Shown: positions 22,995 to 53,803, counted from the first letter of the stretch. The stretch is 64,000 nucleotides of DNA from Ignavibacteriales bacterium (GCA_016186715.1 JACPLA010000100.1:157-64156), one strand, 5' to 3'. Numbers and translations are program-made. Notes: generated by a model from the letters alone, not told the origin.

Positions 22995-25900
22995 TTACTT
23001 CACAACGGCGATCTTAATAACGACGGATTCCCGCTTCCCCGATCCCTGTGCCTCCAGCCGGGCCAGGTAGATTCCACTCTGAATGTCCTGCACATTCCAG
23101 GTCAGCTCTCCGTCGACGCCTCCGGCTGATTCTCCGCGCAGCTCGGTGATGGAGCCCCCTGCGACATCAAAGATCTTGACCGATATACTCGCGGGTTCCG
23201 TCGTATAGTAACGGATACGGGTCAGCGATCCGTACACAGGGTTTGGCCAGTTGTAGACGCGGTCTTTCGGCAGGAATTCCGTTGAGAGAGGAGACAAGAC
23301 AAGTCCAGAGCCGTCATAGAAGTTGGAATGGCCGGCGTCATTAAGAAATCCCGACCAATGCTTTCGCAGTGCTCCCCACGAGACGGCTGACTCCCACGCC
23401 TGAACGGCCCCGGATGGGCCTGCGACAATCAATCCCAGACTTCCCGATCCTGATTCATAGAGAACCAGCGATCCGTCCCCGGGCGACGCGGCCTGAAAGG
23501 GAAACGACGGAAGCACGCTCCCGTTTCGATCATACCCGAACACGGTTCCGGAACGTGTGAGACAGACCAGGTCCTGATAACCGTTGCCATCAACATCGAT
23601 GACAACCGGCGTTCCCACAAACACATTTCCTCCGGAGAACTGCTTTGGAAAGAAATCCAGCGTTGTCCCGTTTTCGTTGAAAGCATACAGACGTGATCGG
23701 GCAACGACCACAATATCGAGACGACCGTCGCCGTCGACGTCGGCCACAATAATTTCCGAAACCGTGTCGGAAACCGAGATCTCAAATCGTTGATCCCCGG
23801 TTGGATCGTAGGCGGCAACCCTGTGACCGCCCTCCTCCGCCACTGCGAAGATCGCTCCGGTCTGCGAGTTTCCCGCAGCAAGAAGCCACGGTCCTCCACC
23901 TCCCAGTTGGGTCTCATTTTGATTGCGGAACAGCGACCCGCCGCTTGTGAACGTGACGGAGCCATCGGCGCTTGTCCCGCGGGCCAGCCGTTTTACCGCG
24001 CCGCGTCCCGTCGGGAAGAAACTCTGCACCGTTCCATCCAAGCCGACCTTCCAGACGGTCCCCGATTCATCCCCGACAACGACGAGCGTTGTCCCTGCAG
24101 AATCGACCATCATCGGTGGCGCCGTGATCCGATTCGGAACAGCGACAGTGCGAAGACCGACGCTGTCATAGACTCCATCGCCTGTGTTGTCCCACAGCTC
24201 CCAGATCCGCAGCGTGCTGTCCTCCACACCGGCCACAACCGTGCGCGCCGACTCAAGTCCGGCCAGAGGAAACTGACTCGGGGACGCTGAGAGGAGACCC
24301 GCTGGATCCGTGACACCGGATGAACCGTTTTTCTGAAACACAAAAATCCCCTCGGCCGATGGTACGAAAACAGCGGAGTTCATGACAGTCGGATTGCCAA
24401 GCTGCGAGGGCGATCCAAGAGACATCGTCAGCGGCCCCGGCCGAAAATCTCCGGACCCCCGGTCCACCGTCATGACTGCGCGTACAGATTTTGCAGAGAA
24501 CTCTTTCATAGAGATGAAGCTTCGTGCTCCCGCGTTGCTGTTGCTCGACGGAATCGAGGTCTCGCTGAACTCGTTTCGATACACGGGTGCCGGGTTCCCG
24601 GCGAACCACGCATCGGGGGGCCAACCGTTCTCCGTCCCGCTCCCGGCCTCAAGAAACTCATATGGCACCCCGATGTCCTGCGAACCGTCGGCCTCTTCCA
24701 GATCAACGCCTCGTCGTTCCGGATCTGCGTTCACCGAGTTGGAAGCCAGGCCGGCCTCAATGATATCTTCATCGACATGCCAGATCAAAATTCCGCCCCC
24801 TTCGAACGATTGAAGAGACATATCGCCCGAAATCGCCCAATCGAAATCCTCGACGTCGATCAGGGACCCCGTGATCCCCCTGACATCGTTAAAGAAAAAG
24901 CCAGTCGTGTCGCGTTCGTAGTGCCGCGTGACGGTCACTCCGTTTTGAATAAGAGTCACCATCTGACCGTTCCCAAGCGGATCCCGGCTCCTGTTTTCAA
25001 CGAGGAAATACTCCCTGTGTGTTATCGGGATCTTGTAAATCGTGTCGTTGCCAGCTGTCGTCAGGCCGACGGCCGGAAGAATGAGCGATGAAGCCCCCGC
25101 GGCCGGGATGGTGGGGGTGGTCCAGCCGAGGTAAACTTTTTCCCATGCTGAGGGTTCAGGTGGAAACAATCCGCTGTAAGCGAAAATCGCCGCTCCGTCC
25201 ATCAGGCCGAATTGACCAATCCCTGATCGGCCCGTGCGAGTGTCGAAGAGATCCGGCAACCCAAGGAAACTCCCAAATGACGCGGCAAGCAGCCCGTTGA
25301 TGCTCAGCTGGAGAGTATCGCTTCTGCTTCCCGAGGTGAATACGCGTGTTTCGGTTTCAGGAAGAATCATAGAATTCGTTATAAAGAACGACCCGCCGTT
25401 CACAGGGATTCCGGGGAACGCAGGGTCGTTCAAAAGGTCTCTCATCGACGCGAGGTTCAGCGTGACGGAGGGAATGTCTAATGGTGTGGGATCAAATCCA
25501 AAGATGCCGACCAGATCGATGTCCCTGCCGACGCCCGCATGAAATATGATGAAGCCTTCGTATTGCGAAAACGGGAAGGCGGGGTTCAAGTCATTCGCCG
25601 CCGACCAGCTGTCAACAACGAGCCGCGCCAGAGGTTCGTTTGGTCCTTCTCTTGGGGGGGAGTATACAGCCATGTTTTCGGCAAGGGTCACGACAGGACC
25701 AAACAGGTCGGCGCTGATGAGAACCTTGCCGTTGGAGACTTTTCTGAAGTAATTCTCAAGAAAGCGCAGTTTACCGGTGAAATACGATGCATCGTGAGGA
25801 GGCGGATCGATTTGATCCGGGTTTCCCGGGGCGGCAAACGTACCGTCGCCGCTGGTGCGGGAATCCGAATCGCTTTTGAATTCGACCATAAGAGCGAGGA

Positions 25901-26045
25901 CACGAATCGTATCCTCAGCCTGGAGCCGGGGGGAAACAGCGGAGGGAGAAGAAAGCCGCACCCTCGAAAGCGGGCGTTCCTTCGGTTGGGAAAGACCGCC
26001 TGTAAACAAGACAGATAACGCGAAAGCAACAGAAAAAACCTTCAT
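22995..26045 (-). CDS. T9SS cargo: M6/InhA-like pseudo-metallopeptidase (HExxH replaced) + FG-GAP/VCBS beta-propeller repeats + T9SS C-terminal sorting domain
   Basis: Signal peptide MKVFSVAFALSVLFTGGLSQ (ATG at 26043-26045). M6 landmarks are present: GLLAASFGSFLGLPDLFDT aligns to the family's HEFGHxLGLPDxYD block, and SAWEKVYLGW, YFLVENR and ILIWHVDE also match. FG-GAP repeats VADVDGDGRLDIV and VIDVDGNGYQDLV. C-terminal domain ...SVKIFDVAGGSITELRGE...GIYLARLEAQGSGKRESVVIKIAVVK. Confidence 0.75.
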   Translation of the reverse strand: MKVFSVAFALSVLFTGGLSQPKERPLSRVRLSSPSAVSPRLQAEDTIRVLALMVEFKSDSDSRTSGDGTFAAPGNPDQIDPPPHDASYFTGKLRFLENYFRKVSNGKVLISADLFGPVVTLAENMAVYSPPREGPNEPLARLVVDSWSAANDLNPAFPFSQYEGFIIFHAGVGRDIDLVGIFGFDPTPLDIPSVTLNLASMRDLLNDPAFPGIPVNGGSFFITNSMILPETETRVFTSGSRSDTLQLSINGLLAASFGSFLGLPDLFDTRTGRSGIGQFGLMDGAAIFAYSGLFPPEPSAWEKVYLGWTTPTIPAAGASSLILPAVGLTTAGNDTIYKIPITHREYFLVENRSRDPLGNGQMVTLIQNGVTVTRHYERDTTGFFFNDVRGITGSLIDVEDFDWAISGDMSLQSFEGGGILIWHVDEDIIEAGLASNSVNADPERRGVDLEEADGSQDIGVPYEFLEAGSGTENGWPPDAWFAGNPAPVYRNEFSETSIPSSNSNAGARSFISMKEFSAKSVRAVMTVDRGSGDFRPGPLTMSLGSPSQLGNPTVMNSAVFVPSAEGIFVFQKNGSSGVTDPAGLLSASPSQFPLAGLESARTVVAGVEDSTLRIWELWDNTGDGVYDSVGLRTVAVPNRITAPPMMVDSAGTTLVVVGDESGTVWKVGLDGTVQSFFPTGRGAVKRLARGTSADGSVTFTSGGSLFRNQNETQLGGGGPWLLAAGNSQTGAIFAVAEEGGHRVAAYDPTGDQRFEISVSDTVSEIIVADVDGDGRLDIVVVARSRLYAFNENGTTLDFFPKQFSGGNVFVGTPVVIDVDGNGYQDLVCLTRSGTVFGYDRNGSVLPSFPFQAASPGDGSLVLYESGSGSLGLIVAGPSGAVQAWESAVSWGALRKHWSGFLNDAGHSNFYDGSGLVLSPLSTEFLPKDRVYNWPNPVYGSLTRIRYYTTEPASISVKIFDVAGGSITELRGESAGGVDGELTWNVQDIQSGIYLARLEAQGSGKRESVVIKIAVVK

Positions 26046-26154
26046 GACCCTCCGCCGGACTGCAACAGGATGGGAAGAACGGACCGACACCCTAGTGTCT
26101 CGACCTGCAGGACGCGGCACGATTTCTCTTACAAGGTATTTCTTAGACTCGACA

Positions 26155-27267
26155 CTAGAACGGGGATCCTTCCCACCGTATCATCAGAGTGAAGCGGAGT
26201 GTTTCTCCTAAGGGATGCTTGTCTTCAAACGCATCAATGTAGCTGAAGTCGAATCCGTACACATCATATCGGAGTCCGGCCCCGTACGTCATGAACTTGC
26301 GATTTCCGTATTGCGGATCTTCATAAAAATACCCGACGCGGAGGGCAATCAGCCTGGGTGACCCATACCAATATTCAAATCCCATGCTGGTCACAATGTC
26401 GCGCAATTCCTCACTCAACGGTTTGTCGATCCATGAATAGTACAGCGCTCTGTAAAATGGGTCTGTCTTTCCCTGGCTGTTGCGACGAACGAGCAGTTTG
26501 CTGAAATCAAGGATGTACGTCAGGTTGTTGAACTCCGACTGGATGGCATCAACTGCAAACCCGAGTCGAAAGTTCATCGGAAGGGGATCTGCCTGAGCTT
26601 CATCGATGTACGTCAGGTTCGGACCGATGTTCGAAACGTTGACACCGATGCTCAACCGATTGCCGAAATCGATATCTGTAAAAGGGATCATGACGATCCT
26701 CGGTCTGTACATCAGGCCGAGGTCGAAGCTAAGCCCGGAGGCGACGCCTTTGCCCTTCTCCTCCGCCGTTCCAAACGGAGCCAGCCTGCTGTGAATGAAC
26801 CGCACATTGACACCGAGAGCCAGTTCGTCGAAAACCATGGTAGCGTAGCCCGCAGTCAGGGCAAACTCATATCCTTTGAACCTACCGATCTCCTCAGGTC
26901 CGGTCGGGGCCGTTCGAATGAATTCGCCAAGATTGAGATATGTGAGGCCCGCCGAGATTGTCCCGTCCAGGTCAGGAACATTCTGCTTGTACACGGTATG
27001 AGCGATCCAGAGGTCTGAGAGTCCGAACCCGGGGAGCCAATTGGCATGAGACAATGCGACCTCGGAACCGGTCTGATACGCGTAACCGGCCGGGTTCCAA
27101 AACTGCGCCCACACGTCATCGGCAAGACCGGCACCCGCTTCTCCCATTCCGCTTGCCCTCGAATTCGGGGCGATGAGGAGAAACGGAACCGCCGAGGTGG
27201 ACACCTGAGCCGATATCTCGAATGTCATGACGATGAGAAGAATCGGCAGAATGATTTTCTTCAGCAT
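26155..27267 (-). CDS. porV: Type IX secretion system outer-membrane shuttle protein PorV (LptO)
   Basis: Signal peptide, then the PorV-family N-terminal signature PFLLIAPNSRASGMGEAGAGLADDVWAQFWNPAGYA. About 370 aa beta-barrel. It sits immediately downstream of porU. Start chosen at the ATG 9 nt after GGAGG; an alternative ATG is at 27276. Confidence 0.75.
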   Translation of the reverse strand: MLKKIILPILLIVMTFEISAQVSTSAVPFLLIAPNSRASGMGEAGAGLADDVWAQFWNPAGYAYQTGSEVALSHANWLPGFGLSDLWIAHTVYKQNVPDLDGTISAGLTYLNLGEFIRTAPTGPEEIGRFKGYEFALTAGYATMVFDELALGVNVRFIHSRLAPFGTAEEKGKGVASGLSFDLGLMYRPRIVMIPFTDIDFGNRLSIGVNVSNIGPNLTYIDEAQADPLPMNFRLGFAVDAIQSEFNNLTYILDFSKLLVRRNSQGKTDPFYRALYYSWIDKPLSEELRDIVTSMGFEYWYGSPRLIALRVGYFYEDPQYGNRKFMTYGAGLRYDVYGFDFSYIDAFEDKHPLGETLRFTLMIRWEGSPF

Positions 27268-27348
27268 AGACTGCATCCTCCGTGGAAACAAGGTCCCCGC
27301 GAGGGGACGGTTTTGATGATACCAGAATTATTTTCCATTTTCAATACT

Positions 27349-30300
27349 CTAGCGCAGGACCGTCAGTTTTCCGATAACTTCTTCAGAAGTACGACGATCG
27401 GAAGACCGGGTGACAACTTTGTAAAAGTACACACCGTTGGCGATCGGGTCTCCGTTCTGATCGCGCCCGTCCCAGGGAATCCGGACAAACCGGTCGACAA
27501 CGGAAAGCCCTTCTTGAATTTTGACCAGTCTGCCCGCAAGGGTATAGATCTTGACTTCGACGTCGATAGGATCCGACGAATTTCGTTGAAAGGTGAACAC
27601 CGTCGACCGCACAACAGGATTGGGGAAATTAAAGACATTGTAGATTTTCAAATCCGATACCGCGCGGACATCAAAGGCGATTTCCTCCTGAGCCGAATTG
27701 TTGTAAATATCCCATGCCTTGACCTTTAACGAGTGTCCTCCTTCCGAAAGATCCCGAAGTTGATAACGGACTTCTCCGCTCTGATACGTGTCGAGGTCTC
27801 CACGATAGAATGGGGTCAGATCAATGGACTGAGGTATTCCGCTGAGGGTGGCCTCAAGCCGGTGTCCGACACTTGCCGTCGATGTATTGATCCCGCTTTG
27901 GTCGAACAGTTTCACGAGAAGCAACGCATCCGGGGACACGACATCGCCTGACCGGAACGACTCATCATCGAGAAACACCTGCAGGAGAGGCCCCACGCTA
28001 TCGACGGCTGCCGCGGAATCTGTACCGGCGATCACGATGTTCTCCGTATAACCCACGGCATCGGATGAGGAGGACCGGGCATAGACGGAAATGCGGGCCC
28101 GGTTGTTGTCATACGAAACGTCCTTGGGAATGGGAACTGTGGCGCGGAACTTCCCCTGGTTGACGCTGATCTCACCGCGATACAACAGGCTGCCATTGAC
28201 TTCAAAGGAAAAATTCCCCCATTCCGGGACGAACACCCTGCGTTTGGAATCGAACATTTCCAGGAGCGCTCGTCCGGTGAAATCGCCCGACGGAGATCCG
28301 TCCGGTCGGAGAACAAGCCCGTTGATTTCGATACGACTGAGCGCGCTCACCTGGACGAGAGTCGATAACGGAGCGCCGTCGATGCTGTCCACACCTGCAA
28401 ACGTCGCCGGGAGATTTAGTCTCATGGTAGGATCAGCAAAGAGATGGTACTTAATGTCGTTGACACCGGAAAGTATTTGTTTCGTCCGGTACATGGCATC
28501 AACGAGTCTCCGCGGTCTTCCATCCGGATCACGGGGAAACAATTGCGCATAGAGCGTGTTGTTGAACTGTGAATTCTGAAACGAATAAACAGCACGGGAT
28601 GCCGTGACGACACCGATGGCGCCCCCCTGAGCCATGGTCAGTAACAGTTCCCCTGCACTTTCTTCAGCCGGATCGTCATAGCGGGCGAAGTCACAGGTGG
28701 CCGCAACAAGAAAAAAGGGTTGGGTGTAATTTCTGAGCAGGGGCAAGCTGGCCTCACGAGTGAAAATTGCCTCGTGGGCCCAGAGCTGCGGGTTCCCGTG
28801 TCCGGTATAGTTAAGAATAAGCGTCCCATCGTTGATGGCTTCCACGATCGCAGTGTTGGCTGTCGGTTTTCGCCGACCTGCCGCGCTGTTGACCGTCGGA
28901 TACTCCACGATAAAGATCTTCTTCTTTTCCACAATTGCGGGCGTAAAACTCTGCGCCAGGACCTCGGCCTGAAGCGTGTGAATGCTCCCGTCATCCCTTG
29001 TCGAGGTCAGGCCGTCATCCGCGACGTATGTGACGCGATTGCGCCACGGCTCCAAGGGTGCGGTTGTTTCATACGCAATGATCTTATCCACCGCAGCCCG
29101 TGCCTGCCCGAGTGAATTGATCGGAAGGCGACCGATCGCAACCGAAACCTTTGTGTCGCCGGGATTCAGTATGCCCAGATGATCGTCACTGGCATAAGAA
29201 AGGATCTGAAACACCGATTCCAGCGTTTCGTAGGGAGGGATCCAGTTCCGGTTGGAGGCCCGGATGTTTTTGTAATCGTAGTGGCCGTCGCCGAACAGCA
29301 GGACATAGCGGACCGGAACGCTCCAGTTCCCTCGTGTGGAAAGAAGAAAATCCCTGACCGCCAGCGGGTCGGTGTTTCCCCCCGAATACTCATTGACAAT
29401 ATTCTCAATGTCCACAACCAGGCACGTCAAGGAATCTCCCTGTTCGCGATGGGCCGCAAGACGATCCGCTTCGGACCGAAATTCTCTGGGCGTAATGATG
29501 ACGAACTCAGCCCCCGTTGTGAGACCCTGGAGGTTTGTATTCTCCACTTTCCGGACGTTCGTCGGCACAAGGAAGCCGTTCGGACCTATGGCAAGAAACT
29601 GGCGGACGCCTCCCGCGGTCTGCGGCGACTGAAACGCGCACATTCCCGGGTCGATCGGATCGACGGTCAAATTCGTGATTCTCACAACACTGTCATGGAC
29701 GCTCACATCGAAGACATTCACGTCTCGGCTGGAAAAACCGGAGACGCGATATTCCATGACGCCCGTCGTATCGGGCGACGAGAACGCGATGAAATCATTC
29801 AGAGCCTCAAAACGTCTCCGATACAGGATTTCAAACCAATCAAGCCATCCGTTTGCTCCCGACGAATTTGCCGAAAAACTGAACCGAAGAATGCTACGAT
29901 CGTCGGGCAACGTGACCTGGCGCGAGATCGTGGTCAACGGAGCCCGATATGCCGCGTTGCCTTCGATGTCTCTTACATCGATCCCCAACGTGATGATGGG
30001 ATTCCCAAGGGGTTCTCCATTCTCCTCAATCTGGAAAGACTCGTTTGTCAATGAACGCCCCAGAAACAGAAACCGGTAGGTGGTCGGTTTCGCGGAGACG
30101 AAGCCCGGAAGGAGAGTTGTGTACACCGCCGTCCTGCTTTCGGAGTCAAAGAGCGGGCCGAGCCACTGCCTTCCCGAGTGGATGAGATTGTTCCGTTCTT
30201 CCTCCACAAAGACCTTTTCCTGAAAATCTTCGACGAACGGACCGGAGGCATTCCCGGATGCAACGGAATCCATCGACTTCCCCGGATCACCGCCAAACGT

Positions 30301-31266
30301 GAAAAAATAGGCGTTCACATCTGTATAGTGATTGATAGAATGGTTGAATGTCTTTGTCGCAGGATTGTACCGCCACCCGCGCGTCGAGGCGCCGTAGAAG
30401 AGGAGATAATCCTCCGCGTCAAACAGACCGTTTCCGTTCCTGTCGACGATCATGCGGGCAACCTCCTGGAGGCCGCCGGATGGGCGGGGCTCCGAAACTC
30501 CCTCCGGCAGCGGTCTCCCGCCGTTTCCGTAGACGCGGATGGAACCAATGTCGGACACGGCGCTCACGGCAATGCCCGCATTGATGAAGAACGATTGATC
30601 CAATTTGTAAATCCCTGTTTCTCCGATATCCATCTTGTACCATTCGCCCTGCTTCAACGGCGAATCGGGCACTTGTCTCGACGCGACCTGACGGGAAGAT
30701 CCGGCCACTGATTTGACACGGACCACCATCGCGTCGTAGCGTCTCAGGATCTGCCGTGCTTCATCGTACTGAAGGGGATAAAGCTTCAGGAGGATGGTTG
30801 ATGTCCCGCTCAATGTGGTGATCTTTTCCACTTCTGTGAGCCTTGATGGGGCGAACCCTGCGGCTCCAGAAGGTCGGCCGGAAAACACCGGTACAGCTCC
30901 GAATTCCCTTTCGTCTTCTCTTCGGAATGCAGGATACGGCGCAGGGAGATGGCCCGGAAGCTCGGTGTACCGAACATCCACGATTTCCGCTTCCCAGTTC
31001 TCGCCTTGAAGTTCCAACGGAAGCACGCGGAAGGGAATCATCGGTTGTCCGGGATCTTCCCGAGACAAGATTCCGCCGGTAAATCCAACAAAGGTGTAGT
31101 GTCCTCCCCCGGCGCCGCGGATCGCTTGCGTGAAGAACTGCGGGTGGAATTCCAACACGATTGCAGAGGCGCTGCGTTCGCGAACGACCACATCGCCCTG
31201 ATCCTGACCGACGAGGATGACAGTGGAGAGGAAAAAAACAAGAAGTATGGAGATCGAACGCTGCAT
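27349..31266 (-). CDS. porU: Type IX secretion system sortase PorU (C25 gingipain-family cysteine peptidase)
   Basis: Signal peptide MQRSISILLVFFLSTVILVGQ. C25 catalytic His/Cys blocks (NYTGHGNPQLWAHE, FFLVAATCDFARYD). Retained T9SS C-terminal domain (...KIYTLAGRLVKIQEG...GVYFYKVVTRSSDRRTSEEVIGKLTVLR). The adjacent downstream porV is the conserved porU-porV arrangement. Confidence 0.8.
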   Translation of the reverse strand: MQRSISILLVFFLSTVILVGQDQGDVVVRERSASAIVLEFHPQFFTQAIRGAGGGHYTFVGFTGGILSREDPGQPMIPFRVLPLELQGENWEAEIVDVRYTELPGHLPAPYPAFRREDEREFGAVPVFSGRPSGAAGFAPSRLTEVEKITTLSGTSTILLKLYPLQYDEARQILRRYDAMVVRVKSVAGSSRQVASRQVPDSPLKQGEWYKMDIGETGIYKLDQSFFINAGIAVSAVSDIGSIRVYGNGGRPLPEGVSEPRPSGGLQEVARMIVDRNGNGLFDAEDYLLFYGASTRGWRYNPATKTFNHSINHYTDVNAYFFTFGGDPGKSMDSVASGNASGPFVEDFQEKVFVEEERNNLIHSGRQWLGPLFDSESRTAVYTTLLPGFVSAKPTTYRFLFLGRSLTNESFQIEENGEPLGNPIITLGIDVRDIEGNAAYRAPLTTISRQVTLPDDRSILRFSFSANSSGANGWLDWFEILYRRRFEALNDFIAFSSPDTTGVMEYRVSGFSSRDVNVFDVSVHDSVVRITNLTVDPIDPGMCAFQSPQTAGGVRQFLAIGPNGFLVPTNVRKVENTNLQGLTTGAEFVIITPREFRSEADRLAAHREQGDSLTCLVVDIENIVNEYSGGNTDPLAVRDFLLSTRGNWSVPVRYVLLFGDGHYDYKNIRASNRNWIPPYETLESVFQILSYASDDHLGILNPGDTKVSVAIGRLPINSLGQARAAVDKIIAYETTAPLEPWRNRVTYVADDGLTSTRDDGSIHTLQAEVLAQSFTPAIVEKKKIFIVEYPTVNSAAGRRKPTANTAIVEAINDGTLILNYTGHGNPQLWAHEAIFTREASLPLLRNYTQPFFLVAATCDFARYDDPAEESAGELLLTMAQGGAIGVVTASRAVYSFQNSQFNNTLYAQLFPRDPDGRPRRLVDAMYRTKQILSGVNDIKYHLFADPTMRLNLPATFAGVDSIDGAPLSTLVQVSALSRIEINGLVLRPDGSPSGDFTGRALLEMFDSKRRVFVPEWGNFSFEVNGSLLYRGEISVNQGKFRATVPIPKDVSYDNNRARISVYARSSSSDAVGYTENIVIAGTDSAAAVDSVGPLLQVFLDDESFRSGDVVSPDALLLVKLFDQSGINTSTASVGHRLEATLSGIPQSIDLTPFYRGDLDTYQSGEVRYQLRDLSEGGHSLKVKAWDIYNNSAQEEIAFDVRAVSDLKIYNVFNFPNPVVRSTVFTFQRNSSDPIDVEVKIYTLAGRLVKIQEGLSVVDRFVRIPWDGRDQNGDPIANGVYFYKVVTRSSDRRTSEEVIGKLTVLR

Positions 31267-31608
31267 AGAAAAATGAAAAAGCCGAACGACGGTCCATGTT
31301 CCTTCATTCGGCCACTTGGCTTCCACCGAATTCGATAAAGGCTTGCTCCGTCACTGCCACACCTGAACAAACCGCTTCGTTTGATCAGGAACCAACCTTT
31401 AACAAAGACTCGATAGAAGAATTTCCTGTATGCGTTTTACGATCTCGACTCTAAAGATAGCAGAAGGGTGTTTGAGAGTCAAGAAATCGCGTGTGCCATG
31501 TTACACGCACAGACTGAATGCGTTTTTCATTGCGCGCGGGTTTTTTGGTTGCAGTTAGCGCAAAAAATTATTAAATTTCCGTTGTTTTAGACACTTTTTC
31601 GAGGTAGA

Positions 31609-41275: not shown

Positions 41276-41806
41276 CTATTTCACAAATTCACGCTCGCCG
41301 CTTCTCACCACCAGGACGGGACACGGCGCCTTGCGAACCACCTTCTCGGCCGTGCTGCCGAAAAGCGCATGTTCCAGGCCAGAGTGCCCGTGGGTGGCAA
41401 TAATAATCAAGTCGACCTGTTCTTCCTTCGCGTACTGAAGAATTTCATAGAACGCTTTTCCGGTCCGGATCGCGCGTTTCGCCGGAACTCGTTTTCCGAT
41501 TTCATGCCGGAGAAGATCGTCTAACTCCTCCCCGCCGCGCTTCCGCAGCTCGTCCTCGATCGCCGGAAATCCGACCTGACCAAAACTAAAATCGGCCGGA
41601 TAGACCGTCGGCTCTACCACATAGATCAGACTGATACGGGCGCGAAACTGACGGGCAAACGGAATTGCGTACTGGAGGGCTTTCTTGGAGTGCTCCGAAA
41701 AATCGATGGGGACCAGAATGTTCTTCAGGTCGATTCTTGTCGGCCGGCTCTTACGACTCCGCTTTCCTGGCCGGGCTGTCAGCTTCCTTGCTGTTTTCTT
41801 CGCCAT
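41276..41806 (-). CDS. Universal stress protein (UspA family)
   Basis: ILVPIDFSEHSKKAL and the C-terminal ATP-binding motif GHSGLEHALFGSTAEKVVRKAPCPVLVV. Start at the ATG at 41804-41806 with GAGAGGAGA upstream; an alternative ATG is at 41839. Confidence 0.8.
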   Translation of the reverse strand: MAKKTARKLTARPGKRSRKSRPTRIDLKNILVPIDFSEHSKKALQYAIPFARQFRARISLIYVVEPTVYPADFSFGQVGFPAIEDELRKRGGEELDDLLRHEIGKRVPAKRAIRTGKAFYEILQYAKEEQVDLIIIATHGHSGLEHALFGSTAEKVVRKAPCPVLVVRSGEREFVK

Positions 41807-42365
41807 TGGATCTCCTCTCAAGTTCTGACTGAAGGGCATCCATCTGACTCTTGAGTTTCGAAAGCTCCTTGTCCGTTTTTCTCAGGCGCTCTCCGACGAT
41901 TTCCGCAAGTTTCAGGACGATCTTGATTCCCAACGACGGCTTCCGTTCGATGAGATCGAGCAGATCCGGGCGGAAGAAGCCGATCAGCAAACATTCGGTC
42001 TTGCAGATGGCACTCGCCGAGCGCGGGGACTCATCGAGGAGCCCAAGTTCGCCGAAAAAATCTCCCTCAGAGAGCACAACAAGTTCTTTTTGCGCGTTGT
42101 CCTTATCGGCCAATGCAATGGACACCGTCCCTTCCTGGACGATGTACATCCCCAGCCCGGGATCACCCTGATAAAAAACAGGTTCTCCCGCGCGGTATTC
42201 GCGTTTGTGCACAATCGCTGCGACCTCTTTCAATTCGCGGAATGTCAGGTGCGCAAAGGCAGGTACTCTGCTGAGCAATTCCTGGGTCGACCCTTTCCGG
42301 ACACTGCGTTCGGAAAAGATGTTTTTCCAGATTACGCTTTCGCCGACGAATTTTGGAACAGCCAT
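41751..42365 (-). CDS. Cyclic nucleotide-binding domain protein (no DNA-binding domain)
   Basis: cNMP-binding signature GDFFGELGLLDESPRSASA. C-terminal coiled-coil. It overlaps the downstream usp by at least 56 nt. Confidence 0.75.
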   Translation of the reverse strand: MAVPKFVGESVIWKNIFSERSVRKGSTQELLSRVPAFAHLTFRELKEVAAIVHKREYRAGEPVFYQGDPGLGMYIVQEGTVSIALADKDNAQKELVVLSEGDFFGELGLLDESPRSASAICKTECLLIGFFRPDLLDLIERKPSLGIKIVLKLAEIVGERLRKTDKELSKLKSQMDALQSELERRSNGEENSKEADSPARKAES

Positions 42366-42389
42366 GTTCGTCTCCCGACTCGCAAGGTT

Positions 42390-43307
42390 CTAGATAAATG
42401 TGAGCCAGTTAAATTTGTCGTTGCCGGTCTGAACGATGTCGAAGAACGACTTCTGAATCTCTTTCGTAACCGGCCCGGGCTTCCCGTCTCCCACCAGGAT
42501 CTTATCCACGGACCGGATGGGCGTGATTTCGGCCGCCGTCCCCGTGAAAAACAACTCTTCAACCGTGAACAACATCTCCCTGGGAATCTGCATCTCAACG
42601 ACGGGGTAACCCAGCTCTTTTGCAAGGATCAACACTGCCGATCGCGTTACGCCCGGAAGAAGCGCAGACGAAAGCTGCGGGGTGAAGATTGTCCGGTCCC
42701 TCACGAGGAAGATATTCTCGCCGCTTCCCTCGCTCACGTTCCCGAAGTAGTCGAGGGCAATTCCTTCTGCGTACCCGCCGGCAAGCGCTTCGAGCTTGAT
42801 CAGCTGCGAATTCAGATAGTTGCCGGTTGCCTTTGCCATGGTGGCAAGGGTGTTGGGCGCCGGACGATGCCATGAAGCGACGCTGACGTCGATGCCGTTG
42901 GCAAGGGCCTCTTCCCCAAGATACGCGCCCCATTCCCAAACTGCAATAGAGACGTCAACCGGACACCCCAGCGGGTTCACGCCGACCTCCCCGTAGCCGC
43001 GGTAGACAAGGGGTCTGATATAGCAAGCCTTCAATTTGTTGGCCTGGATCGTCTCTTTGATAGCACCGACAAGCTGTTCCCTGTTATAGGGAATCTCCGT
43101 ACGGTAGATCTTGACAGAATCGTACAACCGCCTCAAATGGGCGTCGAGACGGAAGATCCCCGAACCCTTTTTTGTATTGTAGCAACGAATTCCTTCGAAC
43201 CACCCGGAACCGTAGTGAATAACGTGAGAAAGAATATGGATGCTCGCATCATCCCAGTCCACCAATTTTCCATTCATCCAAATTTTTTGAGCTTTTTTTA
43301 CCGGCAT
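42390..43307 (-). CDS. ilvE: Branched-chain amino acid aminotransferase
   Basis: Class IV aminotransferase motifs (GSGWFEG, EGSGENIFLV..., GTAAEITPI); 305 aa. Confidence 0.9.
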   Translation of the reverse strand: MPVKKAQKIWMNGKLVDWDDASIHILSHVIHYGSGWFEGIRCYNTKKGSGIFRLDAHLRRLYDSVKIYRTEIPYNREQLVGAIKETIQANKLKACYIRPLVYRGYGEVGVNPLGCPVDVSIAVWEWGAYLGEEALANGIDVSVASWHRPAPNTLATMAKATGNYLNSQLIKLEALAGGYAEGIALDYFGNVSEGSGENIFLVRDRTIFTPQLSSALLPGVTRSAVLILAKELGYPVVEMQIPREMLFTVEELFFTGTAAEITPIRSVDKILVGDGKPGPVTKEIQKSFFDIVQTGNDKFNWLTFI

Positions 43308-43330
43308 GACATTCGTTCCTTGTTCTGGTT

Positions 43331-44452
43331 TCAGGCAATCGGCATCTCGTAGATCCGATATTTCTTGTACGGCGTGCCGTTCATTGTATTGGCCGCCTTG
43401 ATCATTTTATCATTGTCCTCGAGAATCCAGCCGGCTTCGCCGTACTGGTAGCCAAGTTTCCGCGCCCTGGCCGCAGTCTCATAGAACAGGACTCCCGCTG
43501 CGCCGGAGGCCTGGTGCTCCGGAAGGACACCCAGGACAATGATCCGAACCGTGTTGATCCGCTTCTTATGCAGCGCGAGCCGGACCAACCCGGGGATCAA
43601 CCATCCCCTCGTATTCGACTTCAGGGCCGCGTTAATATCGGGAAGAGAAAGAGCAAATCCAACAGTTTTGCCGCGTGATTCGGCAAAGATCACCAAATCA
43701 GGAACGACTACCGGTTTCAAATCTGCGGCGAGCGCGTTGATTTCCGCGTCCGTCATTGGAACCTCTCCCCAATTGTGAACCCATGCTTTGTTGTAAACGT
43801 CTTTGATGCGTTGGACGTCCGAGTCAAACCGTTTCATGTCAAGCGAGCGAAACGAAAGACCCTGTCGTTCCTTCACAAGCGCATGTATGCGCTCCAGACG
43901 GTCCGAGTACACCGTCTCCTGGGAAAGCAGGAACGAATACAGATCCTTGATTTTGGTCAGTCCGTACGACTCGATCAACGTCGCATAGTACGGGGGGTTA
44001 TACGGCATCAGGATGACCGGCGAATGCTCGAACCCTTCGATGAGGAGGCCGTACTCATCATTGACCGACGGGTTCGCCGGTCCGCGCATGGCATTCATGC
44101 CGTGTGAGCGGAGGAATTCTCGCGCGGAGCTAAACAACGCCTTCGCGACGTCTCGATCGTTGATGCATTCAAAGAATCCGAAAAAGCCGACCTTGTCCCG
44201 ATGTTCCCTGTTGTGATTATGATTGACAATGGCTGCAATGCGTCCCACCATCTCCCCGTTCCGTTCGGCAATAAAGAACTCAGTCTCCGAATGGGCATAG
44301 AAAGGATTTTTCTTCCGGTCCATGAGTTTCTTCCGATCCATCCAGAGCGGAGGAACCCAAACCGGATTCCCGGCGTAAATCTTCCAAAGGAACCCGATGA
44401 ATTGTTTGGTATCTTTGGCCGTGCGGACAGGACGTACAGAAATGGAGTTCAT
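43331..44452 (-). CDS. GNAT-family N-acyltransferase (candidate bacterial ceramide synthase-type or N-acyltransferase of a sphingo-/sulfonolipid pathway)
   Basis: 373 aa, GNAT-like fold. It lies immediately downstream of an alpha-oxoamine synthase, separated from it by a terminator hairpin. Confidence 0.6.
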   Translation of the reverse strand: MNSISVRPVRTAKDTKQFIGFLWKIYAGNPVWVPPLWMDRKKLMDRKKNPFYAHSETEFFIAERNGEMVGRIAAIVNHNHNREHRDKVGFFGFFECINDRDVAKALFSSAREFLRSHGMNAMRGPANPSVNDEYGLLIEGFEHSPVILMPYNPPYYATLIESYGLTKIKDLYSFLLSQETVYSDRLERIHALVKERQGLSFRSLDMKRFDSDVQRIKDVYNKAWVHNWGEVPMTDAEINALAADLKPVVVPDLVIFAESRGKTVGFALSLPDINAALKSNTRGWLIPGLVRLALHKKRINTVRIIVLGVLPEHQASGAAGVLFYETAARARKLGYQYGEAGWILEDNDKMIKAANTMNGTPYKKYRIYEMPIA

Positions 44453-44490
44453 GAAAAATTCGGCGTTGGGAGAGATGAAAGGAGAAAATG

Positions 44491-44524
44491 AAAAAGCCGC
44501 GTCCTCGGGGGAAAGCGGCTTTTC
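44491..44524 (-). terminator. Rho-independent terminator hairpin (AAAAGCCGC...GCGGCTTTT) between spt-like gene and GNAT gene
   Basis: 9-bp perfect stem flanked by an A-run and a T-run. The symmetry makes it bidirectional. Confidence 0.6.
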
Positions 44525-44559
44525 ACAGCTGTGTCAGACCGGGCATACGCCATCGACGC

Positions 44560-45786
44560 TCAGTGTATAACTCCGAGGCTCCGGCCGACTTTCTTGAAGA
44601 TGGCGAGGGCTTTGTCGAGGTGCTCATCCTCATGCGAAGCCATATAGCTCGTCCGGAGCATTTCCATCCCCGGCGGCACTCCGGGGCGGATAAACGCATT
44701 GACAAAGACGCCTTCTTCAAAAAGACCCCGCCACATGCGAAGGACTTTTTCCGTGTCACCGATGATAACGGGAACGACCGCTGAATCGTGCTCGCCGACC
44801 CGGTATCCCATCTCGGCAAGCCCAATCCGCATTTTTCGCGCATTTTGCATGAGTTTGTCGATGCGATGCGGTTCTTTTTCGAGGATATCAAGCGCCGCCA
44901 GGGCTGCCGCCACGGAAGCGGGAGTCGGACTGGCGCTGAAGATCAACGCGGGGGCATGATGTTTCAGGTAGTTGATGACCGTTCTGTCGCCGACCACAAA
45001 GCCGCCCAACGACGCAAACGTCTTGCTGAACGTTCCCATTGTCATATCTGTTTCTTTTTCCAGGCCAAAGTGGCTGGCTGTCCCGCGGCCCCCTTTTCCG
45101 ATGACTCCGACAGCGTGGGCATCGTCAACCAGAATCCGCGCATTGTGCCGCCGTGCGATGCTCACCATCCCCGGAAGGTCAACAATCTCTCCGGAGGTGC
45201 TGAATACACCGTCGGTTACGATAAGTTTTGGCGCATCAGCCGGGAGCTTGGAAACGACGGCCTCAAGATGACTCGTGTCGTTGTGCTTGTACCGAATGAT
45301 GGTTTGTACTTTTCCATCCACAAGGGCGTTGGCCCCGGCTGCCATAAGATTCCCGGCAACAATGCAGGCATGGTTGTCCTTGTCCGAAACGACGTATTCC
45401 CCTCTCTGGACGAGGGTGGGGATGATTCCTTGTGCCGTTTGATATCCTGTGCTATAGAGGAGGCAATCTTCTTTTCCAAAGAATTTTGCCAGGCGCGTTT
45501 CCAATTCGACATGCAGGTCGAGCGTTCCGGTGAGGTAACGCGATCCCGAACAACCGGTGCCGTATTTCTCCACCGCTTTGCTGGCAGCTTCCTTAACGCG
45601 GGGATCGGCGGTCAGCCCGAGGTAGTTATTTGACCCGGCCATGATGACCTTCCGCCCCTCAATCTGAACTACCGGGCCTTCGTTCTCTTCGATCGCATGA
45701 AAGTACGGATACAAACCGAGCGCCTTGGTTTCATCCGCGCGGGTGAACGCTTTACACTTATCGAAAAGGTCCAACGTGCACTCCAA
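44560..45786 (-). CDS. Alpha-oxoamine synthase family PLP enzyme (serine palmitoyltransferase / 8-amino-7-oxononanoate synthase-like)
   Basis: PLP-lysine block [12 protein letters not shown] and AOS-family motifs ([16 protein letters not shown]); 408 aa. Confidence 0.85.
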
Positions 45787-46078
45787 AGTTATTGAAACGA
45801 GGAAGGTCGAAGAAAGGCCTTCATGTTGGGTAGCGTCTCTCCCGGATTTCGAAAAAGAATCATCGCAGAGACGCAGGGAGACAGAGGGTAGCAGAGCCTC
45901 CGCGATTTTCTTTTTTCAAAAGCGAGACATCATCTCTTTTTGCTTGTCAAAGCAATTTTTAATATACTCGAATTAGTTTCTAAAGTCAATCGACCTTCCT
46001 TGAACGCGGAGAATCTGTATCGCCACTGTTGCCGTCACGGGGGGAACCGGATTCATCGGGAGTCACACCGTTGAAGCG

Positions 46079-47002
46079 TTGTTGAGCCAGGGCTTCACGG
46101 TGCGGTGTCTTGTTCGTCCCGGCAGGAAAGGCCTCGGATGGTTGACCGGCCTTCCTGTCGAGACCGTGGAGGCAGACCTGTTTCATCGACCTTCCCTTCT
46201 CAACGCGCTGAACGGAACCGAGTTCCTCGTCCACATCGCCGGGGTCACGCGAGGCAAGCGTCGCCGGGATTTCTACCGCGGCAACGTCGAAACCACTCTC
46301 AACCTTCTCAACGCCGCCGAACAATACGGCTCAATCAAACAGTTCTGTTTTCTCAGCAGCCTCACAGCAACGGGGCCAAGCCGGAACGGGACTCCTGTGG
46401 CCGAAGAAACTCCATGCCGTCCCATCACGCCGTACGGGCATTCAAAGCTGGAGGCAGAACAGGCTTGCAGGCAGTTTCAGCACAGGGTTCCCGTGGTGAT
46501 CGTTCGCCCTCCGGCAGTCTACGGCCCGCGCGACCGCGATATCCTGCATATGTTCCGATGGATCAAGTTCGGCATCATGCCCCTGATGGGCCCGCGAGAA
46601 AAAACCCTGAGCCTCATTTATGTGTCCGACCTTGCACGGGCGCTTGTCAGAGTGTTGACCTCGCCCATGGCAACCGGCAAGACATATTTTGCCGCCGATC
46701 GATCTGTTTACAAATATTCCGACCTGGTCTCGTTTGCGGCATCACTGATGGGCAAAACGACGCGTTCCGTTTTTCTCCCCAAAGCTTTGATGTACTCGGT
46801 CGCGGCAGCGACACAAACGGTTTCCTGGATCCTGCCCAAGCCGTCAGTCGTCAACATCGATAAGGTGCGTGATCTGATCACTCCGCATTGGGTCTGCAGC
46901 GCGGAAAAAATCAAACGAGAACTCGGGTTCCAGACGACGCTCTATGCGGAGGAAGGATTGAGCCTGACGCTTGAATGGTACCGCGTGCAGGGGTGGTTGT
47001 AG
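46079..47002 (+). CDS. NAD-dependent epimerase/dehydratase family SDR (true start probably upstream near 46013-46019)
   Basis: Extended SDR fold. The Rossmann motif IAVTGGTGFIGSH is encoded in-frame upstream of the first canonical start (TTG at 46079), after a stop at 46001-46003. Confidence 0.7.
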   Translation: MLSQGFTVRCLVRPGRKGLGWLTGLPVETVEADLFHRPSLLNALNGTEFLVHIAGVTRGKRRRDFYRGNVETTLNLLNAAEQYGSIKQFCFLSSLTATGPSRNGTPVAEETPCRPITPYGHSKLEAEQACRQFQHRVPVVIVRPPAVYGPRDRDILHMFRWIKFGIMPLMGPREKTLSLIYVSDLARALVRVLTSPMATGKTYFAADRSVYKYSDLVSFAASLMGKTTRSVFLPKALMYSVAAATQTVSWILPKPSVVNIDKVRDLITPHWVCSAEKIKRELGFQTTLYAEEGLSLTLEWYRVQGWL

Positions 47003-47004
47003 AA

Positions 47005-47991
47005 TCAGAATATCGGAGTCAAGACTTCAAACGACAGTGCGGCAAGAATTGCAGAGACCGGGATCGTCAGCACCCAGGCGACAATAATTCTGCCTGCCAA
47101 CCCCCATCGGACCGCAGAAATCCTCCTCGTCGATCCAACGCCCATAATTGCGCCCGCGATGGTGTGAGTCGTGCTGACCGGAATCCCGAAAAGCGCCGTT
47201 CCCAGCAAGACCAGGGCGCCGCCCGTCTCCGCACAAAATCCCCCCACAGGTTTCAGATGGGTGAGTTTCATCCCCAACGTTCTGATGACCCTCCATCCGC
47301 CCACGAACGTTCCGAGGCCAATGGCTGTGTGAGCCGAGAGGATCACCCAGACCGGCACCTCGAATTCCTCAAGATATCCCCCGGAAAACAGAAGAATGGT
47401 GATGATCCCCATGGTTTTCTGCGCATCGTTGGTCCCGTGACCGAGGCTATAAGCCGCCGAAGAGACAAGCTGGCCGATACGGAAAAGCCGGTCCACTCTT
47501 CGCACTGAGGAATTCCGAAAGATCCAGGAAACAACAATCATCAGGAAAAATCCGACCAAGAGACCAATAATCGGTGCCAGAAAGATAAACACGACAACCT
47601 TGGCTATTCCTCCTGCGTTTAAGGACACCAGTCCGCCTTTAATGATTCCCGCCCCAACGAGTCCCCCGATCAGGGAGTGAGACACACTGATCGGGAAGCC
47701 GTAGCGGGTGCACAGGTGGGTCCAGACAATCGCTCCTGCCAGGGCTGCGAGAATGACCTGTTCGTTCACGATCGCCGGATCGATAATTCCCCTCCCAATG
47801 GTTTTCGCAACCGCGACCCCGAAGCCGAACGCAGCAACAAAGTTGAAAAAAGCCGCCCAGAGCACGGCCATTTTGGGTGAAAGAACGCGAGTCGAAACCA
47901 CCGTGGCAATGGAGTTGGCGGCATCATTCATGCCGTTGAGGAAGTCGAAGAGGAGGGCGATGAAAACAATGAAAACAGTGAGTGCGAGCAC
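47005..47991 (-). CDS. Inorganic phosphate transporter, PiT family
   Basis: PiT motifs (NGMNDAANSIATVV, GHGTNDAQKTMGII); about 10 TM helices. GTG start. Confidence 0.85.
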   Translation of the reverse strand: MLALTVFIVFIALLFDFLNGMNDAANSIATVVSTRVLSPKMAVLWAAFFNFVAAFGFGVAVAKTIGRGIIDPAIVNEQVILAALAGAIVWTHLCTRYGFPISVSHSLIGGLVGAGIIKGGLVSLNAGGIAKVVVFIFLAPIIGLLVGFFLMIVVSWIFRNSSVRRVDRLFRIGQLVSSAAYSLGHGTNDAQKTMGIITILLFSGGYLEEFEVPVWVILSAHTAIGLGTFVGGWRVIRTLGMKLTHLKPVGGFCAETGGALVLLGTALFGIPVSTTHTIAGAIMGVGSTRRISAVRWGLAGRIIVAWVLTIPVSAILAALSFEVLTPIF

Positions 47992-51186: not shown

Positions 51187-52386
51187 CTAAACCGCAGTCA
51201 CCGATGTGCGTGTTAACTTCCCACCCGGACTTCGTACCACGGCATTCGCCTCTTCTCCGATTAGCCGCTCGAGCTTCTGAACTTTTTCCTCCACCTCCGG
51301 ACGTGACCGGCCGAGAACCGTCATGTGGCCCATCTTGCGTTTTGGCTCCCTCCTCGATTTCCCGTACAGGTGTATTTTTGCGCCTTCGATTTTCTGGACT
51401 TCAGCCAGATCGAGACGCTGGAGATGTTTGCCAAGGAGGTTCACCATTGCACAGGGACTGAGAAGCCTCGGTTGATGAATCGGAAGTCCGCAAACGCATC
51501 GGACGAGCGCTTCAAATTGTGAAACACTCGAAGCGTCAAGCGAGAAATGTCCCGAATTGTGCGGACGGGGCGCAAGCTCATTCACTAGCAACCGACCGTC
51601 GTGTGTCACAAACATTTCCACACACAGGACGCCCACGATGCGAAAATGCTCAATCACCGCTCTGCCCAGGTCCGTCGCCTTTTGTGCCAGATCGGCGGGG
51701 AGTTCTGCGGGAACGCGTGTCACGTGGAGGATGTTCTCGCGATGTTCATTTTCCAGGACCGGGAATGTCGTCACCGTCCCCTCGCGCCCGCGGACGGCAA
51801 TCACCGAGATTTCAAGCTGGAGAGGAAGGAATTGCTCAACCACGCGCTCCGCAAATTGTTCCCCCTCCTTCTTCAAGAATGATTCAAGTTCCTCCCCTGT
51901 ACGCAAGACGGATTGTCCTTTGCCGTCGTACCCTGTCGTTGAAGTTTTCACCACAACCGGGTACCCAATCTCCCGAACAGCCGTTTTCAATCCGTCCGCC
52001 GTAGAAGCAGACAAGAACCTCACAACCGGAAACCCAGCTTTCAGTAAAGCTTCTTTTTCCACTCCCCGGTGTTGGGCTATGCGAAGGATGGGGCTTCCGG
52101 GAAAAACCGGTTTGTTCGATTCAATGGTTTCAACGGTCTGCGCGTCGATATTCTCGAACTCGTACGTGACGACGTCGGAAGACCGGCCAAGTTGCTCCGC
52201 GGCTTGTGTGTCCTCGAAAGGAGCCGTGATGGTTCTTTCGGCAACCTTTGAAGCCGGGCATTCCGGATCGGAATCCCACACGATACTCCGGTATCCCATC
52301 CGACGGGCTTCGCGGAGCGTCATCATGCCGAGTTGTCCGCCGCCGATCATCCCGATCGTCGCCGGCGGGAGAAGGGTGTTGGTCAT
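51187..52386 (-). CDS. purK: N5-carboxyaminoimidazole ribonucleotide synthase
   Basis: ATP-grasp motifs ([27 protein letters not shown]). I trimmed the track's 197-aa spurious extension to the ATG at 52384-52386, which overlaps the purE stop (ATGA). Confidence 0.9.
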
Positions 52387-52886
52387 ACCGATGTGGAAAG
52401 AACCTTCTGTTCGGTATCTCTCCGATAGTGTTCGAGCTTTTCGGCAAATTCCGGACGCTTCACGGCGAGGATCCTGACGGCGAGCAATCCGGCATTTGTT
52501 GCTCCGTCGATCGCGACCGTTGCGACGGGAACTCCGGCCGGCATTTGTACGATCGAGAGGAGGGAGTCGATTCCGCTCAGCGCCCTCGATTTTACCGGAA
52601 CGCCGATCACCGGAAGCGCCGTTTTCGACGCGACCATGCCCGGCAAATGGGCCGCCCCGCCCGCACCCGCAATAATGACCTCGATCCCGCGTCCCGCCGC
52701 GTCCTCCGCATACCGAAACATGTGGTCCGGAGTACGGTGCGCCGACACCACCTTGAATTCGAAGGGAACGCCAAACGACTTCAGAATATCTCTCGCCGGA
52801 GCCAGGTGCTCGGCATCCGAGGCGCTTCCCATGATAATGGCGACAAGGGGGGGTACGCCTTTTCTGCCGCGTCGTCTTAGTTTCAT
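52383..52886 (-). CDS. purE: N5-carboxyaminoimidazole ribonucleotide mutase
   Basis: PurE signature [10 protein letters not shown], then AHRTP and [13 protein letters not shown]. Confidence 0.9.
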
Positions 52887-53038
52887 TGGAATCAGCAATT
52901 ACGAAAGACCTGTCGGAAACGGACCGGACGATCAGGCGCCGTCCAGGCCGCACCCTTCGACCGGCTAGAAATGGCAAAGAGGGTCTCAGGGCATGCGTGA
53001 ACGTACGAAAGAGTTTCTAGAATCGAAAGGGGAATGAT

Positions 53039-53803
53039 TCAGAGCCGTGCCGCAGACTCGTCGGATGCCGTCTGACGATTACGGTTCTGTTTCTTTTTCT
53101 CAGCCGCAATCCGATTCGCGATAAGAGCCGCTGTCGCACCTGCGCCGAACCCGTTATCGATATTCACCACGGTCAGCCCCGGCGCGCACGACTGCAGCAT
53201 CGTCATCAACGCAGCCTCTCCCTTTCCGCCATATCCGTATCCCACGCTCGTCGGCACGCCGATCACCGGAACCGGTACAAGTCCCCTCACGACTGTTGGG
53301 AGTGCTCCCTCCATTCCCGCCACCACGACCACTGCCGAAGCATCCTGAGAGCGAATCTCTTCGAGCGGATTCACAAGCCGATGAATGCCCGCCACGCCGA
53401 CATCATAAAACCGAAGCACCTTGCAGCCCATCGCCTCGGCCGTCACACGCGCTTCCTCGGCAACGGGGAGATCCGACGTTCCCGCGGCGAGTACCGCTAT
53501 CACCCCCCCTGTGGTGTGAATCCCCCTCCCCGGCCGCTGAAGTACAATTGTCCGGGAAATGTCGTTGACGGCAACATCGAACGATTCTCCCAGTTCGCTT
53601 TTCACGGCTGCGGCCACCGCCGCGCTCGCACGGGTAACCAGGGCAAGACCTTCCTGCATTGTCATCGATTCAACGAGCTTCACAACCTGTTCGGCCGTCT
53701 TTCCTTCCGCAAGCACCGCTTCCGGAATCCCGGTGCGCTCCCGGCGGTGAATATCAAGACGGCCAAATGAATCTAACGACGATTTGGGATCTTCCAATGT
53801 CAT
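53039..53803 (-). CDS. larB: LarB-family PurE-like carboxylase (nickel-pincer cofactor biosynthesis protein LarB homolog)
   Basis: N-terminal LDIHRRERTGIPEAV block plus a PurE-like fold in the C-terminal half (AVLAAGTSDLPVA, VAGMEGALP). Confidence 0.7.
   Translation of the reverse strand: MTLEDPKSSLDSFGRLDIHRRERTGIPEAVLAEGKTAEQVVKLVESMTMQEGLALVTRASAAVAAAVKSELGESFDVAVNDISRTIVLQRPGRGIHTTGGVIAVLAAGTSDLPVAEEARVTAEAMGCKVLRFYDVGVAGIHRLVNPLEEIRSQDASAVVVVAGMEGALPTVVRGLVPVPVIGVPTSVGYGYGGKGEAALMTMLQSCAPGLTVVNIDNGFGAGATAALIANRIAAEKKKQNRNRQTASDESAARL

Follow-up and report, generated by a model that had tools for sequence, protein, structure and literature searches.

Known ceramide clusters and the Ignavibacteriales locus

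In Caulobacter crescentus, ceramide synthesis depends on a serine palmitoyltransferase (Spt, CC_1162), a ceramide synthase (CerS or bCerS, CC_1154) and a reductase (CerR, CC_1164). E. coli B carries the corresponding genes spt (ECD_02854), yghO (ECD_02850) and epi (ECD_02852). CC_1154, yghO/ECD_02850 and DRN02_007910 are orthologous acyl-CoA N-acyltransferases required for dihydroceramide, and the orthologous reductases are CC_1164, ECD_02852 and DRN02_007875 (PMC9386255). For Caulobacter, it was proposed that the amine is acylated before the ketone is reduced (PMC11087976). The sphingolipid-producing Bacteroidota examined to date reportedly do not have their three ceramide genes in a cluster. 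Here we describe three adjacent genes at positions 43331-47002 of a 64,000-nucleotide stretch, hereafter the window, from a metagenome-assembled genome (MAG) of an Ignavibacteriales bacterium (GCA_016186715.1, JACPLA010000100.1:157-64156; G+C content about 54%).

The genes encode the enzymes that a first-pass annotation of this DNA had named: an alpha-oxoamine synthase (AOS), a 373-residue GNAT N-acyltransferase and, divergently transcribed, a short-chain dehydrogenase/reductase (SDR) of the NAD-dependent epimerase/dehydratase family. Pfam confirms the three families as Aminotran_1_2, Acetyltransf_1 and Epimerase, respectively. Full-length homology links each protein to its counterpart in ceramide clusters anchored in the literature, and the trio is linked across several phyla; for these reasons it very probably constitutes a three-gene, bacterial-type core pathway to ceramide (dihydroceramide), as first suggested. 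Homology, active-site conservation, linkage, gene fusions and sequence elements are direct observations; from them we infer what the enzymes act on, what they make and in which order, and how the genes are regulated.

The AOS, an Spt-like enzyme dependent on pyridoxal phosphate (PLP), is predicted to join L-serine to a long-chain acyl thioester, yielding 3-ketosphinganine. The tandem-GNAT enzyme, of the CerS/YghO family, would N-acylate the amine of 3-ketosphinganine, and the extended, CerR-like SDR would then reduce the 3-keto group with NAD(P)H. This order of steps is borrowed from the Caulobacter model and is consistent with the Spt-GNAT fusions described below. Since, in contrast to Proteobacteria, no gene for a dedicated acyl carrier protein (ACP) or acyl-ACP synthetase accompanies spt, the acyl donor is probably acyl-CoA or a housekeeping acyl-ACP, as in other Bacteroidota-type Spt.

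With the Caulobacter-type clusters, represented by their Sphingomonas and E. coli orthologues, the locus shares the same three families in clustered form, at 33-35% identity for the GNAT, about 37.5% for the AOS and 30-32% for the SDR. Unlike those clusters, it lacks AcpR (a dedicated ACP), AasR (an acyl-ACP synthetase) and paralogues of LptF/LptG beside the trio, its reductase is divergent, and its AOS is placed by homology on the Bacteroidota-type, not the proteobacterial, Spt branch. AOS, GNAT and SDR also stand side by side in Streptomyces sp. NBC_01001, Rubrobacter radiotolerans and Aureispira anguillae (Saprospiria). Aureispira has the identical divergent layout (SDR on one strand, AOS and GNAT on the other) and the highest identities: 58% for the AOS, 39% for the GNAT and 37% for the SDR. 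The actinobacterial trios differ from the window in forming one co-directional operon with overlapping stops and starts.

A predicted serine palmitoyltransferase

The spt-like gene occupies positions 44560-45774 on the minus strand and encodes a predicted serine palmitoyltransferase of 404 residues. A mechanical open reading frame (ORF) call starts it at TTG 45786 (minus strand, 408 residues), with the limits also given in the first-pass annotation (44560-45786). Because a second TTG, at 45774, is conserved in five related loci together with a GGAG 7-8 nt upstream, and because most homologues have 404 residues, TTG 45774 is most likely the true start.

Among the NCBIfam profiles, NF047600 (Spt-CFB) matches best, with 477 bits, followed by a BioF/Kbl-related subfamily (360 bits), bioF (356 bits) and Kbl (349 bits). 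The last two scores are substantial, and many homologues are named 8-amino-7-oxononanoate synthase by the automated annotation of JGI and NCBI, as would be expected if the AOS were a housekeeping enzyme of biotin synthesis (BioF) or threonine degradation (Kbl) and the GNAT and SDR unrelated neighbours. Yet the bioF and Kbl scores lie below their respective cutoffs of 426 and 460 bits and about 120 bits under the Spt profile. No biotin or threonine-dehydrogenase (bio or tdh) genes were seen near the trio or elsewhere among the annotated ORFs of the window, the linkage with GNAT and SDR is kept across phyla, and AOS-GNAT fusions exist. A housekeeping role of this kind is hardly credible.

A comparison with all PDB sequences gives a similar picture. 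Serine palmitoyltransferase of Sphingobacterium multivorum (SmSPT; PDB 3A2B, 8GUH) ranks first, at 382 bits; Thermus BioF/Kbl reaches 282 bits, Sphingomonas SPT 265-277 bits, Kbl 226-239 bits, the cysteate-C-fatty acyltransferases 200-212 bits and E. coli BioF 180 bits. By these scores, the AOS is closer to characterised Spt than to BioF, Kbl, HemA, CqsA or the cysteate acyltransferases.

The AOS and SmSPT share 46% identity across 394 positions of a HMMER alignment, which we mapped onto the SmSPT active-site residues described in PMC10196870. Fourteen of the 16 residues checked are identical. N53, G81, S82, H139, S196, D221 and A223 of the AOS correspond to Asn52, Gly80, Ser81, His138, Ser185, Asp210 and Ala212 of SmSPT; H224, T252, S254, K255, S284, A285 and R378 correspond to His213, Thr241, Ser243, Lys244, Ser273, Ala274 and Arg367. 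The PLP-binding, catalytic and substrate-anchoring residues are thus kept, including the Schiff-base lysine, the His/Asp/His cage around PLP and the His and Arg that anchor the carboxylate. The only two differences, F114 to Y and M271 to I, concern main-chain contacts. Outside the active-site set, the AOS differs from SmSPT by a 10-residue insertion at about residues 150-159.

This alignment also bears on the second route that had been proposed for the trio, capnine/sulfonolipid synthesis, in which the AOS would join cysteate to an acyl thioester, the SDR would reduce 3-ketocapnine and the GNAT would N-acylate capnine. The chemistry of the two pathways is parallel, sulfonolipids occur in Bacteroidota, and GNAT and SDR alone would not tell the pathways apart; the AOS has the same fold and PLP chemistry as SulA/CapB, and its 200-212 bits with the cysteate acyltransferases attest to homology. 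These scores are nevertheless about 170 bits lower than that with SmSPT. Moreover, SulA enzymes carry a diagnostic Lys281 where Spt has alanine (PMC9304779), the sole active-site position reported to separate the two: there the AOS has Ala285, aligned with Ala274 of SmSPT. Nor did the annotated ORFs of the window include a gene resembling cysteate synthase. A sulfonolipid core is very unlikely, and we did not retain this assignment.

A tandem-GNAT acyltransferase of the ceramide synthase family

The bcerS-like gene lies at 43331-44452 on the minus strand, and its 373-residue product is 100% identical to the NCBI entry HYW57_08485. Pfam Acetyltransf_1 covers residues 215-352. The AlphaFold (AF2) model, with a pLDDT of 86.5, has a tandem-GNAT fold; the nearest solved structures in a PDB fold search are generic tandem GNATs (TM-score about 0.6, about 12% identity). 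In the C-terminal GNAT half, Q-A-S-G-A-A at about residues 313-318 fits the pattern Q/R-x-x-G-x-G/A, the acyl-CoA binding motif of GNATs. The family is large: 1,678 clusters at 50% identity match with E < 1e-30, nearly all of them of about 375 residues. NCBIfam has no model for it, and neither the window GNAT nor the anchor acyltransferases match any NCBIfam entry.

We located the anchor clusters by tblastn against plasmid and chromid records. The window GNAT aligns over its full length with the cluster acyltransferase of Sphingomonas parapaucimobilis (34.6% identity, E 6e-75) and with E. coli YghO (33%, E 3e-66), at a coverage of 98-99% for both. Overall, it is 33-41% identical, again full-length, to E. 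coli YghO and to the cluster GNATs of Sphingomonas, Streptomyces, Rubrobacter and Aureispira, and a six-way alignment of phylogenetically distant members retains 39 invariant columns.

The Sphingomonas cluster runs, in order, NAD(P)H-binding protein, ACP, AOS, LptF/LptG paralogues, desaturase and N-acetyltransferase; its AOS is the S. paucimobilis SPT itself (907 bits to PDB 2JG2). E. coli yghO is accompanied by genes for a fatty acyl-AMP ligase, an epimerase-family SDR, an ACP, an AOS and LptF/LptG paralogues. These alignments place the GNAT among the bacterial ceramide synthases of the CC_1154/YghO family and not in an unrelated acetyltransferase subfamily, the outcome that had been named as fatal to the assignment.

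Some members of the family deserve mention in their own right. In the E. coli PN43 record NZ_MG591698.1 (locus L005, 2343-10122), the yghO region is a complete Caulobacter-type sphingolipid cluster; such a cluster was already described for E. coli B strains (PMC9386255). E. coli K-12 has no intact yghO cluster. One homologue, P0241 (784 residues), consists of two tandem copies of the whole unit of about 375 residues; in another, P0354 (503 residues), a PilZ domain is fused to the N-terminal side of the GNAT.

A CerR-like reductase

The divergent cerR-like gene, at 46019-47002 on the plus strand, encodes an extended SDR that matches Pfam Epimerase with 124 bits. Its Rossmann motif TGGTGFIG is encoded at 46037-46060 and the catalytic YxxxK is present as Y-G-H-S-K. 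It is 29.6% identical to the epimerase of the E. coli cluster (the ECD_02852 equivalent; E 8e-43), 32% to the Sphingomonas NAD(P)H-binding protein beside acpR-spt (E 1e-37), 34% to the SDRs of Streptomyces and of Rubrobacter and 37% to that of Aureispira, full-length throughout. The window SDR and its anchors share one NCBIfam pattern, with HpnA as the best model, far under its cutoff, and OleD also sub-threshold. The Rossmann strand opens the protein and leaves no room for a signal peptide, and it likewise opens the E. coli and Sphingomonas orthologues; Caulobacter CerR has been reported to be periplasmic.

Linkage across phyla and natural fusions

With one genome per species, our linkage scan comprised 80 loci, none of them from an isolate; they belong to Ignavibacteria, Melioribacteraceae, Kapaibacteria, Gemmatimonadota, Zixibacteria and Calditrichia. 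The AOS gene is directly upstream of the GNAT gene in 65 of the 74 loci where this could be assessed. An SDR homologue occurs in 56 of the 80, spanning Ignavibacteria, Gemmatimonadota and Calditrichia: it is divergent beside the AOS in 37 and 3' of the GNAT in 13, mostly Gemmatimonadota. In the Zixibacteria loci the synthase is near the GNAT, with no cluster-type SDR detected.

Eight loci (L036, L043, L047, L052, L058, L063, L071 and L088), from Kapaibacteria and some Ignavibacteria/Chlorobiota MAGs, contain a GNAT homologue (47-54% identical), with no AOS or SDR within 6 kb of it. Either the cluster is split there, or the GNAT has another partner.

Three natural AOS-GNAT fusion proteins were found: P0279 (780 residues), P0390 (777 residues) and P0322 (648 residues, N-terminally incomplete). 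In each, the Spt-like AOS is N-terminal and the CerS-family tandem GNAT is C-terminal. P0279 is encoded between an SDR gene and a PAP2_3-family gene (locus L011, 8001-10343). As P0279 and P0390 are only 42% identical to each other, the fusion is old and not an artefact of assembly. A text search of one paper found no mention of such fusions. By joining the condensing and the N-acylating steps, they would fit the order in which acylation precedes reduction.

Weighing the ceramide assignment

Several points speak against the ceramide assignment, or at least temper it. The orthology of the SDR to the CerR reductases rests on modest identity (about 30-37%) plus gene context, and family membership is anchored through orthologues from E. 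coli and Sphingomonas that PMC9386255 lists, not through the Caulobacter sequences themselves. The 477 bits of the AOS fall short of the curated cutoff of NF047600, an NCBIfam equivalog, set at 640 bits, which is why we call the enzyme Spt-like and not a member of the equivalog; the model itself seems narrow, since the AOS of the Aureispira cluster, at 487 bits, is under the cutoff as well. There are no head-group or transport genes among the annotated ORFs of the window, a set that leaves out about 20 ORFs, mostly at 1-31 kb. In the literature searched, we found no enzyme assays or lipid analyses for any member of the Ignavibacteria. Finally, the amino-acid substrate of the AOS cannot be read from its sequence, because Spt accepts serine, alanine and glycine alike and contacts to the serine hydroxyl are mostly water-mediated (PMC10196870).

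This last point invites another explanation: the same types of enzyme may make a different N-acylated long-chain amino alcohol, either a 1-deoxyceramide from alanine or a product with a glycine-derived base, possibly iso-branched by way of the neighbouring gene ilvE. According to the literature, the same enzyme set makes 1-deoxyceramides, which are attributed to Bacteroidota in nature. The ilvE gene, for a branched-chain amino-acid aminotransferase (42390-43307, minus strand; NCBIfam ilvE, 424 bits, above cutoff), lies 23 nt 3' of the GNAT gene and is read in the same direction; it adjoins the GNAT gene in 18 of the 80 related loci. Against this, every residue around the serine side chain in SmSPT is kept in the AOS, and the ilvE linkage, confined to close relatives, may be plain synteny. 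We judge such alternative products improbable, and the ceramide core remains the preferred reading.

A probable conserved non-canonical start codon

Standard gene prediction fails on the reductase. The mechanical ORF starts from TTG 46079, inside the protein, and loses TGGTGFIG, because no ATG, GTG or TTG stands between the in-frame stop at 46001-46003 and the motif; the frame is open from 46004. The same holds in three further lineages (L017, L020 and L021), where no canonical start precedes the motif, and in a fourth (L014/15) the nearest one is 32 codons upstream. In all five lineages, the window included, an ATC or ATT is found instead, with GGAG-like purines 6-9 nt upstream of it. The codon is located six codons ahead of the Rossmann motif in four of them, exactly where locus L026 has ATG, and ten codons ahead in L014/15. 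Given this conservation and the alignment with the ATG of L026, the start of the SDR is likely ATC 46019, which would make it a conserved, weak, non-canonical AUY initiation codon.

Transcription signals around spt

A sigma-70-like promoter for spt is located at 45961-45989 on the minus strand (TTGACT, 17 nt, TATATT). It is the sole promoter-like match in the region scanned, 42300-47100. The form TTGACTTT-N17-(A)GTATATT is kept in L012, L014/15, L003 and L001. Among the 38 intergenic regions that separate divergent genes, 19 match a looser pattern, and about 14 of these have the TTGACTTT...TATATT form. The promoter was also noted in L017, L018, L020, L021, L026, L027, L029-L031, L034, L059 and L060, and an AAGCAA/AATCAA box is conserved about 15-20 nt further downstream of it. 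Transcription of spt would start from this conserved element, and the reductase would be transcribed divergently, apparently to be translated from its weak ATC start.

Between spt and the GNAT gene, the strong terminator hairpin announced by the first-pass annotation is indeed encoded: AAAAGCCGC...GCGGCUUUUU followed by a U-rich tail, at about 44479-44524 on the minus strand, resembling an intrinsic terminator or an attenuator. In isolation it folds with -17 kcal/mol (z = -4.07), and 0 of 200 shuffled sequences fold as well; the fold of the whole 107-nt spacer is unremarkable (z = -0.76), so that only the isolated hairpin is significant. A simple scan for terminators, which allows loops of 3-8 nt, overlooked it, since its outer stem spans more than that. 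In four of five further lineages (L012, L003, L001 and L016, from full-spacer folds), the corresponding place also encodes a hairpin with a U-run but a different sequence.

The hairpin ends about 40 nt before the GNAT start, and the promoter scan of 42300-47100 gave no promoter-like site between spt and the GNAT gene. On both grounds, expression of the GNAT probably depends on readthrough, with the hairpin and its U-run letting only part of the transcripts reach the GNAT gene and ilvE.

A perfect palindrome, TTGCTTgtcaAAGCAA, occupies positions 45940-45955, a few nucleotides downstream of the spt -10 box. Its presence and its place in the divergent promoter region are as first described; by itself it is statistically weak, with a match in 13 of 100 shuffles of the window. 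It is identical in L017, the closest GTDB relative. In L012 it reads TTGTTTtgacAAACAA, with both arms changed and the symmetry kept. More distant relatives keep just one arm, the promoter-distal one (AAGCAA/AATCAA, read on the spt strand). We consider the palindrome a candidate operator or 5' mRNA hairpin. The case for a conserved operator is partial, because conservation of the TTGCTT arm is limited to the closest relatives.

Put together, these elements could describe a tuned expression unit in this subclade of Ignavibacteria: the partial terminator, the weak AUC/AUU start and the palindrome as operator would set the enzyme ratios, and co-transcribed ilvE would feed branched-chain primers to iso-branched sphingoid bases. 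As a separate matter, the ancient Spt-GNAT fusions would lend independent genomic support to the disputed bacterial order of N-acylation before reduction. We hold this extended reading as a whole to be rather doubtful, though conceivable.

Gene neighbourhood

Downstream of the GNAT gene, on the minus strand, ilvE is followed by genes for a cyclic nucleotide monophosphate (cNMP)-binding protein and a universal stress protein (Usp); this array (41276-43307) has gaps of 23-24 nt, its last two ORFs overlap, and it is syntenic in close relatives. The full arrangement, with the SDR divergent from AOS-GNAT-ilvE-cNMP-Usp, was found again in related contigs. Whether ilvE is a member of the cluster is uncertain: we regard it as a possible accessory gene, and did not adopt it as an integral part of the pathway, its linkage being confined to close relatives. 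A link of ilvE to iso-branched sphingoid bases is speculative.

Beyond that, the surroundings of the trio are of a housekeeping type. On the ilvE flank are genes for polyprenyl synthase, TatC, SHMT and RpiB, in addition to those for IlvE, the cNMP-binding protein and Usp; on the other flank are those for PiT, a PhoU-like protein, PEPCK, PurK/PurE and Sua5, and Paa genes. The PurK-like ORF (51187-52977, minus strand, 596 residues) and the PurE-like ORF (53039-53803, minus strand, 254 residues) have about 200 and about 100 residues, respectively, ahead of their Pfam domains; either the ORF calls reach too far upstream or the N-terminal extensions are real. Further away, a series of very large ORFs (1009, 1030, 1041 and 1325 residues) spans 14968-31326 on the minus strand, and includes a PorV-like type IX secretion gene (26155-27291) and an ORF with a FlgD-Ig domain.

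Implications

The ceramide pathway and its clustering are already known: the window adds a further member, with modest regulatory details. Sphingolipid gene potential in 'Ignavibacter' was likewise cited in a lipidomics paper (PMC10667739), and the literature that we searched contained no direct lipid evidence for the class Ignavibacteria. What the assignment would provide is a specific, testable function for genes now named 'hypothetical protein', 'GNAT family N-acetyltransferase' or '8-amino-7-oxononanoate synthase', names that sit on thousands of proteins from MAGs of Ignavibacteria and other Bacteroidota. A practical point concerns the start codon: as called by standard ORF finding, the reductase is too short and lacks the NAD-binding motif. 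As for the biology of these lineages, Ignavibacteria and Saprospiria would keep their three ceramide genes together, unlike what is reported for the sphingolipid-producing Bacteroidota studied so far, and the locus supports attributing environmental ceramides to the Ignavibacteria, which are widespread anaerobes.

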